Virus record (IMG/VR): IMGVR_UViG_2872698443_000008
Origin: a virus
Lineage: Duplodnaviria; Heunggongvirae; Uroviricota; Caudoviricetes
Strand: one strand, 5' to 3'
DNA: 42,559 nucleotides
Part shown: positions 30,217-41,101 of the stretch, in pieces
Layout: every line of letters starts with the position of its first letter
Numbering within the stretch: position 1 is the first letter of the stretch
The notes under the pieces: model-generated
Told to the model about the DNA's origin: nothing
The model's input: the letters and a program-made list of their open reading frames with translations, nothing else
The model's database searches: none
Made by a program: the position numbers and the translations under genes

Positions 30217-30609
30217 TCAATCTTTAATTTCGGGGTCCATCTCTAGACTAATTTCCAGCATCGATAGGCAGCCATCAATAAACCCCTCAGCCATCTGTAT
30301 CTCAATGCGTATTAGTTTCTCATCCTTTTTACGAGCCTTGGCGAGCTTTCTTTTAGAGATACCGTATAGGTAATGGGCAACAAGAAGCGAATGTTCGTCC
30401 GGCCTTTTTTGCCTTAGACGAGCAAGACAACCTTCAATAATTAATGCATCACTATCTGAACATGCCTGACGTGTTTTGCTTGTATAGGGAAGAAGCCCTT
30501 TAAACCCAGCAGCTATAGGAGAATAGTCTACTCCTGAACTATCACTCGCCGCCCATGCTCCCCAACGATCCAGAACCATTTGAATATCACGCATCAACTT
30601 TCTCCACAA
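30217..30609 (-). CDS. Late-gene antiterminator Q (phage 82/21 type)
   Basis: MRDIQMVLDRWGAWAASDSSGVDYSPIAAGFKGLL... resembles Q-family N-termini; true start may be the Met 5 codons in. Confidence 0.7.
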   Translation of the reverse strand: MWRKLMRDIQMVLDRWGAWAASDSSGVDYSPIAAGFKGLLPYTSKTRQACSDSDALIIEGCLARLRQKRPDEHSLLVAHYLYGISKRKLAKARKKDEKLIRIEIQMAEGFIDGCLSMLEISLEMDPEIKD

Positions 30610-36159: not shown

Positions 36160-36360
36160 CTAATCTTTCGGATAGATATCCGGTCTTAAGTCAGATTTCG
36201 TAATTGCACCTGACGTGCATTGCTCAAGTTTTTTAGCCAGCACAAAACTGGCTTTTTTATAGCCATTGAAAACCAGCCGTAAGTAGCCAGGTGTTGAGCC
36301 AACTTTTCCGGCCAACTCGCCCTGCTGTTCTTTGGTTAAAGAGTCCCAATACGCTTTCAT
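36160..36360 (-). CDS. Cro/YdaS-like HTH regulator
   Basis: 66 aa from internal ATG at 36360, MKAYWDSLTKEQQGELAGKVGSTPGYLRLVFNG...ITKSDLRPDI; divergent from the repressor gene. Confidence 0.7.
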   Translation of the reverse strand: MKAYWDSLTKEQQGELAGKVGSTPGYLRLVFNGYKKASFVLAKKLEQCTSGAITKSDLRPDIYPKD

Positions 36361-36450: not shown

Positions 36451-37125
36451 ATGAAAACAATCCATGACATCCGGCGGTCTAACGCCAGAAAACTGAGAGA
36501 TGGTGTTGGCGGGAATTCTTCCTTTGCCACTATGATTGATCGCGAGCCAACCCAGACCAGCAGGTTTATGGGAGATGGTGCTACTAAAAATATCGGTGAC
36601 AGCATGGCACGACACATCGAAAAATGTTTCGACCTGCCTGTCGGATGGCTCGATCAAGAACACCAGACAACGAACATCACAAAAAAACCTGATGTTTCAA
36701 TCACTAATAAACAAATCACATTAGTCCCTGTCATATCATGGGTACAGGCCGGAGCATGGAAAGAAGTTGGATATTCTGAGGTTGATTTGAGCACAGCAGA
36801 AACGTATCCCTGCCCTGTACCCTGTGGGGAAATGACTTATATCTTGCGGGTGATAGGTGATTCAATGATTGATGAGTACCGCCCGGGAGACATGATTTTT
36901 GTCGATCCTGAAGTACCTGCCTGCCACGGTGACGACGTTATTGCATTGATGCACGATACAGGCGAAACCACCTTCAAAAGGTTGATAGAAGATGGGACAC
37001 AGCGTTATCTCAAAGCGTTAAACCCAAACTGGCCTGAGCCTTACATTAAGATCAACGGTAATTGCTCTATAATTGGTACAGTGATTTTCTCAGGAAAACC
37101 AAGAAGATACAAAATCAAAGCCTAA
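36451..37125 (+). CDS. CI-like repressor with S24 (LexA-type) autocleavage domain
   Basis: 224 aa; C-terminal ...RVIGDSMIDEYRPGDMIFVD...TTFKRL... (Ser/Lys dyad context). Confidence 0.8.
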   Translation: MKTIHDIRRSNARKLRDGVGGNSSFATMIDREPTQTSRFMGDGATKNIGDSMARHIEKCFDLPVGWLDQEHQTTNITKKPDVSITNKQITLVPVISWVQAGAWKEVGYSEVDLSTAETYPCPVPCGEMTYILRVIGDSMIDEYRPGDMIFVDPEVPACHGDDVIALMHDTGETTFKRLIEDGTQRYLKALNPNWPEPYIKINGNCSIIGTVIFSGKPRRYKIKA

Positions 37126-37139
37126 TCAATGTTTATGAA

Positions 37140-37160
37140 CCTGCTTCGGCAGGTTTTTTT
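37140..37160 (+). terminator. Intrinsic terminator after the repressor gene
   Basis: CCTGC-TTCG-GCAGG followed by TTTTTTT. Confidence 0.7.
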
Positions 37161-37164
37161 ATAC

Positions 37165-37197
37165 TTGACAATGTACCTTTGAGATACATAATGTACC
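37165..37197 (+). promoter_or_regulatory. PL-like promoter with operator-like repeats
   Basis: TTGACA (37165-37170), 17-nt spacer, ATAATG; two copies of AATGTACC overlapping, sharing the GTAC core of the 36364-36435 palindromes. Confidence 0.5.
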
Positions 37198-37296
37198 CAA
37201 GCGAAACAACGAACAGGCAGGACGCCCACGAAGTAGCCGCCTGGGGCATATGAAGTCCAGGATGATTCGTTAGCAACAAAAAAGCGCCCTACAGGA

Positions 37297-37314
37297 CGCT
37301 TAGCTCTTTAACAA
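37297..37314 (+). promoter_or_regulatory. boxA-like antitermination motif in the early-left leader
   Basis: cgcttaGCTCTTTAACAA matches the boxA consensus (GCTCTTTAACAA as in rrn boxA; CGCTCTT in lambda nut). Confidence 0.35.
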
Positions 37315-37359
37315 TCTGGTCCCCATCAACAAGTAACTGATAACTTGAGGAGGTGTGAA

Positions 37360-37566
37360 ATGCACAAAACAGAACCCAAAATCGTCGCGCCTGGCTACAC
37401 AGATGAGGAAATTTATGAGTGGATGACAAAGAAGCTGGCAGCTATAAACCAGCTTCGTGAAGTGCTGTCTTATCGACAGGAAACAATAGACTCCTTAAAA
37501 AAACTGGATCAGGAAATCACAGTTTTATCACAGGATGTTACTTTAGATATTGTGCAGACAAATTAG
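37360..37566 (+). CDS. Small hypothetical early protein (68 aa)
   Basis: ATG at 37360 preceded by GAGGAGG (37347-37353); first ORF after the PL-like promoter. Confidence 0.5.
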   Translation: MHKTEPKIVAPGYTDEEIYEWMTKKLAAINQLREVLSYRQETIDSLKKLDQEITVLSQDVTLDIVQTN

Positions 37567-37972
37567 GATCCCATTCATTTTCGTCAAAATTATCAAAGTG
37601 ATGAATTTGTGATCTCCAGTCTCGATAATCTAAAAATTTCTGGGCGGTTACGCTTATTTTATCAAGTGTGAGTTCATCCTGAATTGAAAGAAGAAGTTCA
37701 TCAAATTTCATCTCATTAATCTGTTTTGGCATCCAGTGATGCTTCATCAGAATAAGGTGAACCAGAGCCTTTTTCCCATTCAACTGATTATAGGGAGTGC
37801 CGAATTTCTTCCGGTGCTCATGTAAGACAAGGTCCAGAAGAGTAAGTAATGTTGCCCTTGATTCAACTTTGCTTATTTCGACTGATGACACTACCCCACT
37901 GATTTCAATGCCCCGATACTTTCCAACATTTTCACAGTGGGATTTGTACAGCGTGTAGATATTACCGGACAT
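37538..37972 (-). CDS. Low-GC hypothetical protein transcribed against the early-left operon
   Basis: 144 aa ORF, AT-rich, AAAGGA before ATG; direct repeats immediately upstream. Confidence 0.55.
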   Translation of the reverse strand: MSGNIYTLYKSHCENVGKYRGIEISGVVSSVEISKVESRATLLTLLDLVLHEHRKKFGTPYNQLNGKKALVHLILMKHHWMPKQINEMKFDELLLSIQDELTLDKISVTAQKFLDYRDWRSQIHHFDNFDENEWDPNLSAQYLK

Positions 37973-37987
37973 TTCTTTTCCTTTTGC

Positions 37988-38039
37988 GTTGTTGGGGATA
38001 ACCAGATTAACCGAATCCTTGTTGTTGGGGAATAACCAG
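37988..38039. repeat. Two direct repeats upstream of the antisense gene
   Basis: gttgttggggataaccag (37988-38005) and gttgttggggaataaccag (38021-38039). Confidence 0.6.
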
Positions 38040-38099
38040 GTCCACCTCGCCTGATGTGGCTAAAAGCAGGCACATAACAGCTAAGTATTTTTAACCAGA

Positions 38100-38470
38100 G
38101 AGAATCCTTAGCGTTGTGGTGAATGCGGCTCAGCGCACGCGGGTTAAGGTTGAGGCTGACAGTCGACCTTCTGTGGATACCCACCCGTCTGGTGTGCAAC
38201 CTTCGCCAGGCACCGGGAGGCACCCGGCACCACAACTTTATGCTGTGTGTAGTCCTGGAGGTACCAGTTTGTACCCTTGCTTCCGGCTGGTACCGTCCTT
38301 TTTACAAAACAGAGAAGAGCATCACCGGACGACGGGCTCATAACCCAATCCATCCGGGCGGCTGCCACCGCAGGTGTTCTTCTCTGTTTTGTGGAGAAAC
38401 TAACCGCCCCTACGGGGGCATTCATGGAAATGTAATTGACTCAATAATCGCCGGACGGTGAGGGCTTCCT
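38100..38470 (+). other. GC-rich non-coding region with nested inverted repeats (candidate structured RNA)
   Basis: No protein-like ORF on any strand. TTGTGGTG (38114-38121) pairs with CACCACAA (38228-38235); AAGGTTG/CAACCTT nested inside; AAAACAGAGAAGAG (38301-38314) pairs with CTTCTCTGTTTT (38377-38390). Confidence 0.3.
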
Positions 38471-38516
38471 TTTACCCGAATTCAGCGCGGTGCAGCGCAT
38501 ATACGTGGAGAACAAA

Positions 38517-39053
38517 ATGTCATTTATTAAAACTTTTTCCGGGAAGCATTTTTATTATGACAGGATAAATAAAGACGACATCGTTATTAACGATATCGCG
38601 GTTTCCCTTTCAAATATCTGTCGCTTTGCAGGACATCTTTCACACTTCTACAGTGTCGCCCAACATGCGGTGCTTTGCAGCCAGCTGGTGCCGCAGGAAT
38701 TTGCTTTTGAAGCTTTAATGCATGATGCAACAGAAGCATATTGCCAGGACATCCCCGCACCACTGAAACGACTTCTTCCTGACTATAAACGTATGGAAGA
38801 AAAAATAGACGCCGTAATCCGTGAGAAATACGGGTTACCTCCTGTTATGAGCACGCCAGTGAAATATGCCGATCTCATTATGCTGGCAACCGAACGCCGC
38901 GATCTCGGGCTTGATGATGGCTCTTTCTGGCCTGTACTGGAAGGTATCCCGGCAACAGAGATGTTCAAAGTGATTCCACAGGCACCGGGCCATGCCTACG
39001 GGATGTTTATGGAACGTTTTAACGAGTTATCGGAGTTACGCAAATGCGCATGA
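38517..39053 (+). CDS. HD-domain phosphohydrolase (YfdR-like 5'-deoxynucleotidase)
   Basis: Start at MSFIKTFSGKHFYY; H...HD motif (AQHAV ... ALMHDATEAY). Confidence 0.75.
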   Translation: MSFIKTFSGKHFYYDRINKDDIVINDIAVSLSNICRFAGHLSHFYSVAQHAVLCSQLVPQEFAFEALMHDATEAYCQDIPAPLKRLLPDYKRMEEKIDAVIREKYGLPPVMSTPVKYADLIMLATERRDLGLDDGSFWPVLEGIPATEMFKVIPQAPGHAYGMFMERFNELSELRKCA

Positions 39054-39406
39054 ATGTTTTCGAAATGGAAGGGTTTCTTCGTGGGAGATGTGTACCGCGA
39101 GATCTGAAAGTGAATGAAACAGATGCTGAATACCTGGTACGTAAATTCGATGCGCTTGAAGCTAAATGTACAGCACTGGAAAACAAAGTAATACCAGTGT
39201 CAGCTGAACTGCCGCCAGCAAATGAAAGTGTTCTGTTATTTGATGCTAATGGAGAAGGCTGGCTGATTGGCTGGCGTTCTCTCTGGTACACCTGGGGACA
39301 AAAAGAAACCGGAGAATGGCAGTGGACATTTCAGGTCGGGGACCTTGAAAACGTCAATATCACTCACTGGGCAGTAATGCCAAAAGCACCGGAGGCTGGA
39401 GCATAA
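39044..39406 (+). CDS. Hypothetical early protein (DUF551-like)
   Basis: 120 aa, Trp-rich C-terminus; overlaps preceding gene end. Confidence 0.45.
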   Translation: MRMNVFEMEGFLRGRCVPRDLKVNETDAEYLVRKFDALEAKCTALENKVIPVSAELPPANESVLLFDANGEGWLIGWRSLWYTWGQKETGEWQWTFQVGDLENVNITHWAVMPKAPEAGA

Positions 39407-39711
39407 TGACCACTTTTACCGACAAAGAACTGATTAAAGAAATTAAAGAGCGTATCAGCAGCCTTGACGTGCGAGACGATATTGAGCGCCGTGCTTATGA
39501 AATCGCACTCCTATCTCTGGAAGTAGAACCAGATGAACGCGAAGCTTATGAATTATTCATGGAAAAGCGTTTCGGTGACTTAGTAGATCGTCGGAGAGCA
39601 AAAAACGGCGATAACGAATACATGGCATGGGATATGACTCTCGGTTGGATCGTCTGGCAGCAACGAGCTGGTATCCATTTTTCAACAATGTCACAACAAG
39701 AGGTGAAATAA
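39406..39711 (+). CDS. Hypothetical early protein
   Basis: 101 aa, acidic; ATGA-coupled to the preceding gene. Confidence 0.45.
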   Translation: MTTFTDKELIKEIKERISSLDVRDDIERRAYEIALLSLEVEPDEREAYELFMEKRFGDLVDRRRAKNGDNEYMAWDMTLGWIVWQQRAGIHFSTMSQQEVK

Positions 39712-40061
39712 TGGAGCCATACAGCCTCACACTCGATGAGGCCTGTCATTTTCTCAAGATATCCAGACCGACTGCCATTAACTGGATACGCACAGGGCGT
39801 CTTCAGGCAACACGTAAAGATCCCACTAAGAATAAATCTCCTTACCTCACAACACGACAAGCCTGCATTGCGGCTCTTCAGTCTCCGCTGCATACTGTCC
39901 AGGTGAGCGCGGGTGATGGCATAACAGAGGAAAGAAAATGTCACTCTTCCGCAGAGGTGAAATATGGTACGCCAGTTTCACATTGCCGAACGGTAAAAGA
40001 TTTAAACAGTCTCTTGGAACAAAGGACAAAAGGCAGGCGACAGAACTCCATGACAAGCTAA
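39711..40061 (+). CDS. xis: Excisionase (AlpA/Xis-type HTH)
   Basis: Start at [36 protein letters not shown]; 116 aa frame overlapping the integrase start by about 120 nt. Confidence 0.7.
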
Positions 40062-41101
40062 AGGCTGAAGCATGGCGGGTCAGCAAACTTGGTGAAATAC
40101 CTGATATAACGTTCGAGGAAGCTTGTGTCAGGTGGCTTGAAGAGAAAGCACATAAAAAATCACTGGACGATGACAAAAGCCGGATCGGATTCTGGCTTCA
40201 ACATTTCGCAGGAATGCAACTAAGAGACATTACTGAATCAAAAATTTATTCAGCAATGCAGAAAATGACGAACCGGCGTCATGAGGAAAACTGGAAACTC
40301 AGGGCAGAAGCATGCAGAAAAAAAGGGAAACCTGTTCCAGAATACACGCCAAAACCAGCGTCCGTTGCAACGAAGGCTACGCATCTTTCATTTATAAAGG
40401 CCCTACTAAGAGCCGCAGAGCGTGAATGGAAAATGCTGGATAAGGCACCAATTATTAAAGTGCCTCAACCAAAGAATAAACGGATCCGCTGGCTGGAGCC
40501 CCATGAAGCACAAAGGCTGATTGATGAATGTCCGGAGCCATTAAAGTCTGTTGTTGAATTTGCACTGGCAACAGGCTTAAGACGCTCGAACATCATCAAC
40601 CTTGAATGGCAACAAATAGATATGCAGCGCCGGGTGGCATGGATAAACCCGGAAGAGAGTAAATCAAACCGCGCAATTGGCGTTGCGCTGAATGATACTG
40701 CATGTCGCGTATTGAAAAAACAAATCGGGAATCATCACCGTTGGGTATTTGTGTACAAGGAAAGCTGTACCAAACCAGACGGAACGAAAGCGCCAACAGT
40801 AAGGAAGATGCGGTATGACGCAAACACAGCCTGGAAAGCGGCGCTGAGACGGGCTGGTATTGATGATTTCAGATTTCACGACTTGAGACACACCTGGGCA
40901 AGTTGGCTGGTTCAAGCCGGAGTCCCGTTGTCAGTGTTACAGGAAATGGGAGGCTGGGAGTCTATCGAAATGGTTCGTCGATATGCTCACCTTGCACCTA
41001 ATCACCTTACCGAACACGCACGGCAAATAGACTCGATCCTGAACCCATCGGTCCCAAATTTGTCCCAGTCAAAAAATAAGGAAGGTACTAATGATGTGTA
41101 A
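39938..41101 (+). CDS. int: Tyrosine integrase (P22 Int type, thrW-specific)
   Basis: 387 aa, [40 protein letters not shown]...; catalytic region ...[20 protein letters not shown]...VRRYAHL; ends 15 nt from the tRNA. Confidence 0.95.

Follow-up and report, generated by a model that had tools for sequence, protein, structure and literature searches.

The early-left leader of the prophage analysed here carries an exact rrn-type boxA, and the comparisons described below support it as a real, correctly placed element that is under selection. Our data establish what its sequence matches, where it lies, that its conservation is selective and that it recurs in association with this leader. The reading that accounts best for these observations, to which we assign an even chance, is that boxA would act as an N-independent loading site for NusB/NusE and keep transcription from the early-left promoter (PL) resistant to Rho across ~0.95 kb; the phage would then probably recruit host Nus factors directly. 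Upstream of boxA there is a 68-nt leader RNA, strongly covarying and uncatalogued, and of the two objects it is the more novel one.

For N-less lambdoid phages (SfV, SfII, SfIV, ST64B, e14, LLS-like), it is an acknowledged gap how early transcription gets past Rho, terminators and antisense morons; SfII, SfV and SfIV have been reported to be without N (PMC3851460). A consensus boxA without N would add the early operons of phages to the rRNA, suhB and CRISPR leaders as places where Nus antitermination works with host factors only.

boxA and its early-left setting

The window, that is, the whole stretch of 42,559 nucleotides that was analysed, is an SfV/SfIV/e14-like lambdoid prophage with tRNA-Thr, beside proA, as its integration site. 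Over the region considered here its identity to Shigella phage SfIV is 98.6%, and prophages in E. coli chromosomes match it at 100%. From the layout of the repressor and cro genes, together with the annotations, it follows that early-left transcription runs rightwards, on the plus strand, toward xis and int (39938-41101). The features referred to in the text are these:

30217-30609, minus strand: Q-like late antiterminator, from the PHROGs/Pfam scan
36160-36360, minus strand: cro (ymfT), in the immunity region
36451-37125, plus strand: cI-like repressor gene of the LexA family (ymfK), an open reading frame (ORF) with an identical locus in RefSeq, called cI in the SfV and SfIV annotation
37137-37163, plus strand: intrinsic terminator of the repressor gene, an 8-bp stem (37137-37156) and a T run; SfV annotates a terminator
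37165-37192, plus strand: predicted PL-type early-left promoter, TTGACA (-35 at 37165), 16 nt, CATAAT (-10 at 37187-37192)
37206-37273, plus strand: three-way-junction leader RNA motif of 68 nt, from covariation, RNAalifold and a covariance model
37272-37301, minus strand: intrinsic terminator (stem 37301-37282, U-run 37281-37272), from folding and the U-run
37303-37314, plus strand: rrn-type boxA GCUCUUUAACAA, from exact match, conservation and enrichment 3' of the RNA motif
37360-37566, plus strand: first sense ORF, 68 aa, not N-like
37538-37972, minus strand: antisense moron of the ECs1072 family (phrog_5286), from the ORF, the RefSeq locus and the PHROG
38083-38305, plus strand: STnc100/PasD-like sRNA, a full-length match to RF02076 in the PL sense
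38304-38392, plus strand: conserved long hairpin upstream of the yfdP/yfdR block, from MAFFT and RNAalifold on 38 distinct homologues
38517-41101, plus strand: distal early-left genes (yfdR, a phage protein, yfdT, xis-like, int)

The predicted promoter is a strong one, with 11/12 matches to sigma-70 and with TGTAC operator-like half-sites repeated on its flanks, and its transcription start is predicted at ~37199. Relative to this predicted start, boxA lies at about +105, in the sense orientation. A preliminary description had placed an element at 37297-37314 in the early-left leader, and this assignment stands, the ymfK end, the terminator and the sigma-70 promoter all being upstream.

The interval reads CGCTTAGCTCTTTAACAA on the plus strand, as had been stated, and the close match to boxA claimed for it is in fact exact. 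boxA proper is the rrn-type 12-mer GCTCTTTAACAA at 37303-37314, which agrees with the rrn sequence UGCUCUUUAACAA at 12/12 positions and occurs in a single zero-mismatch copy in the window, and 13 consecutive bases are common to the window and the E. coli rrnH leader (GCTCTTTAACAAT). GYTCTTTAANA, the experimentally derived functional consensus (PMC5725501), has one match in the window compared to 0.13 expected from shuffles; the locus was not found in the supplement of the boxA-target paper. The first five bases of the interval, CGCTT (37297-37301), belong to a hairpin, of which they form the 3' arm, and a spacer A (37302) comes next. This hairpin, which is the better terminator on the opposite strand, was missed in the preliminary description.

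The window scan found no second boxA in the PR operon. Nor was a nutR found there, the nearest match having 2 mismatches and lying within cro. At 36333-36344 on the minus strand, within the cro coding sequence, there is a boxA-like sequence with 2 mismatches, ACTCTTTAACCA, which we judge to be a chance match (7 such in the window, 3.1 expected).

Conservation of boxA and the adjoining hairpin

For the conservation test, cassettes were found through the hairpin alone, so the result for boxA is not circular. Across the 23 distinct hairpin-boxA cassettes obtained, 11/12 boxA positions are invariant, and the single variable one is position 10, the N of the consensus (C18/A4/G1). In the same set there is variation in the hairpin stem, in its loop (12 or more variants), in the spacer (2-3 nt) and in the 3' flank. 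It is important to point out that these cassettes have a common origin, so that the count of 23 overstates their independence; the truly independent boxA contexts are perhaps 4-6.

The second line of evidence is the enrichment of the consensus behind the leader RNA motif. Within 200 nt 3' of the motif, it is found in sense in 17 of 171 viral contexts, where ~0.06 would be expected, while the same scan gives 0 in antisense and 0 upstream in 48.8 kb. Among species-representative genomes, 15-16 of 90 contexts have it 3' of the motif. About 83-90% of the motifs are thus without boxA, and many of the motif leaders with sizeable antisense ORFs also do without it, which means that boxA is not obligatory.

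Furthermore, boxA recurs after the motif in places that have no terminator hairpin, namely in T5-like Providencia phages, Xenorhabdus and Kluyvera. In the T5-like phages PR1 and PSTCR5 it is located in the terminal repeat, 9 nt after helix P1 of the motif, and sense genes follow. The presence of motif and boxA in a T5-like virulent phage shows that the element is not confined to lambdoid phages. At the Xenorhabdus loci (L272, L320, L321 and L336, in our numbering) boxA comes 2 to 43 nt after P1, and the Kluyvera locus (L300) is likewise boxA-bearing. We also observed that at L132 1200-1285, in the PR1 terminal repeat, and also in PSTCR5, the motif and CGCUCUUUAAAAA open the pre-early operon, upstream of A2.

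Because of this conservation, the enrichment and the hairpin-free recurrences, neither chance nor a role as mere 5' flank of a minus-strand terminator explains boxA well. The preliminary description had left room for a coincidental match; the selective conservation and the enrichment 3' of the motif dispose of that option, and we regard chance resemblance as hardly credible. The sequence is indeed AT-rich and U-rich, and at least one consensus match arises in 11/100 shuffles of the window, but the position, the orientation, the 13-nt rrn identity, the selective conservation and the independent recurrences all go against it.

We now turn to the hairpin. Read on the minus strand it has 8 bp including a U.G pair, folds at -11.5 kcal/mol and has a U6 tail, the sequence after the stem being UUUUUUGU; in the plus-strand reading a C.A mismatch replaces the U.G pair and the energy is -7.5 kcal/mol. 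The A-run/U-run is kept in all cassettes, and the weak Rfam hits over the hairpin are all to minus-strand terminator ends. The hairpin has no compensatory changes, and its strand was called from the energy and the U-run.

In every context long enough to judge, the hairpin-boxA cassette leads to the 3' end of an antisense gene within 15-240 nt; in one short contig a sense ORF alone was seen after it. In the ORF survey, in which the ORF calls in related loci are mechanical, an antisense gene is present in 12/12 cassette contexts, as compared to 43/81 contexts without boxA, and the sense transcript is therefore untranslated there. The slot holds at least four unrelated antisense families, of 144 aa (ECs1072, the one here), ~255 aa, 171-175 aa and 150-166 aa. 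Of the serotype-converting phages of Shigella flexneri, SfIV has been described as the sole carrier of the ECs1072-family moron (PMC3851460). Considering the stronger minus-strand fold together with the antisense genes, the hairpin is best read as mainly the terminator of the moron, and this terminator as a shield of PL and cI against convergent transcription. The locus thus illustrates how antisense morons come in as cassettes, each with a terminator of its own and perhaps with an anti-Rho signal to compensate. In many of the cassette contexts the STnc100-like region is again found downstream, which would fit a shared right-hand linker of the moron slot.

Two further observations concern this slot. 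It is a hot spot, seen at 37320-38040 in the window and at L009, L010, L012, L069, L078, L087, L093 and L130. A second terminator-like hairpin, with a 9-bp stem followed by UUUGU, lies at 37431-37456 on the minus strand; it falls inside the 68-aa sense ORF, with the antisense moron on one side and the terminator at 37282-37301 on the other.

The cassette structure gives rise to another interpretation, in which hairpin and boxA together would be the terminator and recombination linker of swappable morons and boxA itself a relic or hitch-hiker, a nutL remnant of little function. The better terminator on the minus strand with its conserved U-run, the succession of unrelated antisense genes (at least four) behind the same cassette with the STnc100-like region downstream of many, and the ancestral-looking Xenorhabdus order of motif, boxA, boxB and N are all in line with it. 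A relic would be expected to drift, though, and here 11/12 positions are frozen and the sole variable one is the consensus N. In addition, the T5-like PR1 boxA follows the motif without a hairpin, an antisense gene or an N-like ORF, and the 17 nt 5' of the stem are not required for terminator function. Taken as a whole, we find this interpretation quite unlikely.

We have also considered a suhB-type repressor, in which the Nus factors bound to boxA would keep ribosomes from loading on the 68-aa ORF that lies 46 nt further on, and so promote Rho termination and damp early-left expression. This is improbable in our view. boxA is less than 50 nt from the start codon, which is the criterion for suhB-like targets (PMC5725501), and a good Shine-Dalgarno sequence, GAGGAGG, and a local hairpin, CAAGU...ACUUG, are found between boxA and the ORF. 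In most other cassettes, on the other hand, the 3' end of an antisense gene comes right after boxA and there is no sense start nearby, and repression of this kind can therefore not be the conserved role.

N, nut sites and the proposed role of boxA

All early ORFs of both operons that seemed plausible, including the Arg-rich frames at 38100-38460, were scanned with PHROGs and Pfam, and no N-like protein was found among them. These are the profile searches that the preliminary description had called for, and its remark that the first downstream ORF (68 aa) is neither Arg-rich nor N-like is borne out as well, this protein having 2 Arg and a single match, to phrog_1744, a PHROG with no assigned function. 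The same scans did find a CII-like protein, RusA and others, as well as the Q-like late antiterminator. As positive control, the N-like protein of Xenorhabdus was detected as phrog_271 (E 3e-6), with Pfam N_peptide sub-threshold. Since the libraries can detect this distant N-like protein, the negative result for N is meaningful.

boxB was not found 3' of the window boxA either. The sole hairpin there, at a distance of 15 nt, has a loop of 8 nt instead of a GNRA-like pentaloop, and the other cassettes lack it. In the Xenorhabdus prophages L320, L321 and L336, a consensus boxA comes after the motif, and behind it lie a boxB-like hairpin and a gene for an N-like protein. The boxB of L320 is GCGCUGAAAAAGCGC, and the N-like protein (phrog_271) has the arginine-rich motif DYAARRYERRAAFLAK. 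What these loci hold 3' of the new RNA motif is thus predicted to be a complete nutL/N system.

In the light of these searches it is highly improbable that boxA belongs to a lambda-type nut site for which the window codes an N analogue that went unrecognised. Such a reading could appeal to the nutL position of boxA and to the Arg-rich frames at 38100-38460, which exist on both strands. There is, however, no conserved boxB, the nearest hairpin being context-specific with its 8-nt loop, and no second nut in the PR operon other than the 2-mismatch near match within cro. The N families are unmatched despite their ability to detect the distant Xenorhabdus N, and the Arg-rich frames overlap the sRNA/structured-RNA region and change length between relatives.

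In two other loci (L196, ~698, and L203, ~103) the first gene after the motif gives a 70-aa protein with an Arg-rich N terminus, MNAAQRRKAYRK. It matches no PHROG or Pfam family and could be an unrecognised RNA-binding regulator.

With neither N nor boxB, the simplest model is the one known from rrn, suhB and CRISPR leaders. In rrn, boxA alone suffices for anti-Rho antitermination, and in E. coli it is chiefly Rho that silences prophage operons. For suhB and CRISPR leaders there is precedent for Nus loading and Rho resistance of the boxA type (PMC5725501, PMC7665894), and untranslated CRISPR arrays are protected by boxA (PMC7665894). Nus-factor binding and Rho resistance are what we infer for the window boxA.

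The mechanism would be as follows. Upon loss of the repressor, RNA polymerase would start at PL (~37199) and transcribe the 68-nt three-way-junction RNA, then the A-run and hairpin, which form the other-strand terminator of the antisense moron, and then boxA at about +105. Host NusB-S10 would bind the boxA RNA and form, with NusA, NusG and SuhB, a complex that rides with the polymerase and makes it Rho-resistant. The protected transcript would cross 37567-38516, first antisense to the ECs1072-family moron and then through the STnc100-like region, and reach yfdR, xis and int. Rho resistance would matter here because the ~0.95 kb of PL sense strand from 37567 to 38516 is without an intact sense ORF.

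The comparison with known systems brings out what is particular to this element. With the rrn leader (boxB-boxA-boxC; NusA, NusB, NusE, NusG, SuhB) it has in common the identical boxA core, a hairpin just 5' of it and, as proposed here, independence from phage proteins and the expected Rho resistance on untranslated RNA. The rrn leader has a GU-rich boxC, which the window lacks; in the window the 5' hairpin is primarily an opposite-strand terminator, the promoter is a repressor-controlled phage promoter, and a 68-nt RNA lies upstream. The suhB and CRISPR leaders have a stand-alone consensus boxA outside rRNA that uses host Nus factors only, and in the CRISPR leaders boxA shields long untranslated RNA against Rho, as we propose for the window boxA. 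Those elements are chromosomal, whereas the present one belongs to a mobile cassette within the early operon of a phage, beside an antisense moron. The nutL sites of lambda, P22 and phi21 agree with the window in having boxA in the PL leader, but the window is without boxB, N and nutR; relatives of the leader in Xenorhabdus do carry boxA together with boxB and an N-like gene, as lambda-type nutL does.

Besides the common origin of the cassettes and the many motif leaders without boxA, four points stand against the N-independent reading. First, there is an intrinsic terminator at 38257-38303 downstream, and boxA-Nus complexes perform poorly at such terminators. Second, the hairpin and the U-rich boxA could act as a weak terminator on the plus strand. 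Third, the Xenorhabdus boxA lies within a canonical nut site with an N-like gene, so the E. coli boxA could be the retained half of an ancestral nutL. Fourth, a GC-skew scan for a rut site gave no striking C-rich region. As for the first point, the weakness of boxA-Nus complexes at intrinsic terminators suggests that something else, possibly the upstream motif, may be needed at 38303. This motif is a separate and far more widespread leader element, which may cooperate with boxA or handle the terminator at 38257-38303.

The terminator in question belongs to the STnc100/PasD-like sRNA, which is no part of boxA (RF02076; bioRxiv 10.64898/2026.05.13.724894). The full model aligns at 38083-38305, including the terminator, with a score of 38.4 bits that is below the gathering score of 47 (E 4e-7). 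The terminator consists of a stem at 38257-38298 and U5 at 38299-38303, with -18.5 kcal/mol and z -2.4. The SfV annotation also has a terminator inside the early-left operon. RefSeq labels the region of the sRNA as a 'frameshifted hypothetical protein'.

The long hairpin that follows, at 38304-38392, shows compensatory changes, for example ACAGAGAAG/CUUCUCUGU versus ACACACAAG/CUUUUGUGU, and no Rfam family was found for it. Its homologue in K-12 e14 overlaps the annotated ymfH.

The 68-nt leader RNA

The motif at 37206-37273 is 30 nt upstream of the interval in the preliminary description, where it was missed. It forms a three-way junction, in which P1 (6 bp) pairs 37208-37213 with 37266-37271, P2 pairs 37216-37218 with 37224-37226 as a GGC/GCC mini-hairpin with the loop AGGAC, and P3 (5 bp) pairs 37240-37244 with 37257-37261 around the loop GGCAUAUGAAGU; the junction is AUGA. 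Three unpaired segments are near-invariant, namely CACGAAGUAGC after P2, GGCRUAYGAA and AUGA. Here it should be noted that CACGAAGUAGC and the P3 loop were fixed by the search patterns in the main motif collection; with CACGAAGUAGC left free in the pattern, it is exact in 78/96 matches and 1-2 bases off in 15, the other 3 being chance matches. The P2 loop is variable, with 5-7 nt, and its GGA is nearly always kept.

The helices are supported by covariation. P1 occurs as AACGAA/UUCGUU, GUCAUC/GAUGAC, CCACC/GGUGG and GGAAC/GUUCC, and P3 as CCUGG/CCAGG, CCGGU/ACCGG, CUACC/GGUAG and CCGAC/GUCGG. In 58 distinct sequences, 95.7% of the cells are paired and 10/14 pairs have changes on both sides; the covariation score is reached by 0/500 shuffles, and slid controls collapse. 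RNAalifold independently recovers P1, P2 and P3, and the G.U pairs weakly favour the plus strand. Our covariance model (R1) scores 90.6 bits on the window copy and finds no other copy in the window. Rfam 15 gave no plus-strand match for the motif at the gathering threshold, nor when the limit was relaxed to E 10, and no papers were found in the literature for its sequence. In single-sequence folding, the whole leader is not unusually stable (z = -0.3).

Two early candidates were dropped. A structure drawn by eye, CAGGC...GCCUG, was abandoned after comparison of homologues, and the idea of a CsrA site, based on the GGA in the P2 loop and GGAUGA after P3, leaves the other invariant segments unexplained.

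Turning to the distribution, BLAST shows 37205-37271 to be conserved in unannotated intergenic DNA just 3' of the repressor gene or the early promoter, in phages that differ in their immunity regions and downstream genes. The carriers include ST64B, SEN34, SPN3UB, ZF40, YeP1-3, phiNP, mEp237 and mEp460, and Klebsiella, Pantoea and Citrobacter phages. The IMG/VR scan gives more than 170 distinct viral contexts, with the motif within 5-10 nt of the early-left transcript start, and annotated N is absent in most of the phages. In species-representative genomes there are ~87 motif contexts (90 distinct pattern matches, 3 of them chance). The carriers are almost all Enterobacterales.

One copy is present in E. 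coli K-12, which makes the RNA easy to study. It belongs to e14, where it lies between ymfK and ymfJ as the 5' UTR of ymfJ, scores 74 bits and has no boxA:

L254 6111-6179, minus strand, equal to MG1655 1202110-1202178: the K-12 e14 copy of the motif, from the covariance model

A degenerate remnant of the motif is found in Rac, upstream of ydaG.

The closest known counterpart is the put RNA of HK022 and HK639; RNAs of the HK022 put type need no protein factors and act on the zinc-binding domain of RNA polymerase beta-prime. Put-like antitermination had been suggested for the window in the preliminary description. In a 2025 paper, the antitermination of LLS was also guessed to be 'put-like' (PMC12315714). 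Like put, the motif is ~70 nt long, is located at the 5' end of the PL transcript of N-less lambdoid phages, has conserved unpaired nucleotides and shows a similar host range. The suggestion is thus upheld to the extent that a conserved, structured RNA lies just upstream of boxA. It fails in other respects. Compared with the published structure (PMC9378689), put is two adjacent stems and the motif a closed three-way junction, and put has copies at both PL and PR, while the motif is present once per genome with no PR-side partner. The covariance model gave no match to HK022, neither putL nor putR, and the motif coexists with N/nut in Xenorhabdus prophages. A homology to put through the shared ACGAAC and CAGGAUGA was also considered and rejected, as these strings lie partly in variable stem positions and there is no covariance-model match. 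With a different architecture, no PR partner and N present alongside it, the motif is neither a put homologue nor a simple substitute for N.

This raises the question of whether the three-way-junction RNA could be the real antiterminator, put-like and either protein-independent or host-factor-dependent, with boxA as an optional helper as in rrn boxB-boxA. We consider this unlikely. The location at early-left 5' ends in more than 170 contexts, most of them phages without annotated N, is what one would expect, and so are the near-invariant unpaired segments between covarying helices and the restriction to Enterobacterales, which would fit an RNA that docks onto a host machine. There are terminators to overcome as well, the sense intrinsic terminator downstream in the window and the SfV terminator inside the operon, and boxA is strongly enriched just 3' of the motif. 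Set against this are the HK022 putL and putR, which the covariance model leaves unscored and whose architecture differs, the single copy per genome with none in the PR operon, the full N/nut system alongside the motif in Xenorhabdus prophages, the ordinary single-sequence fold and the roughly 83-90% of motifs that have no boxA.

In a broader formulation, the motif would represent a new class of leader RNA that acts in cis to reprogram the RNA polymerase of the host, either alone or with the boxA-loaded Nus complex. This we hold to be conceivable, though doubtful. If it is true, HK022 put would have in the motif a second counterpart, unrelated to it in structure, with the orphan boxA as an optional co-signal, and the carriers of such an RNA would include hundreds of Enterobacterales prophages, K-12 e14 and even T5-like phages.

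Finally, we observed a second leader module, GCGCAGCAGGUUUAAACGUUCCGCC..GGCGAUAAGGGCA, which has a covarying hairpin and occurs in Gifsy/Rac-like early-left leaders. It is located 3' of the three-way-junction motif, sometimes 5' of it, and often right before a start codon. Examples are:

L008 1565-1625: second leader module
L133 1250-1300: second leader module
L010 1960-2000: second leader module
L255 8475-8520, minus strand: second leader module, in Rac
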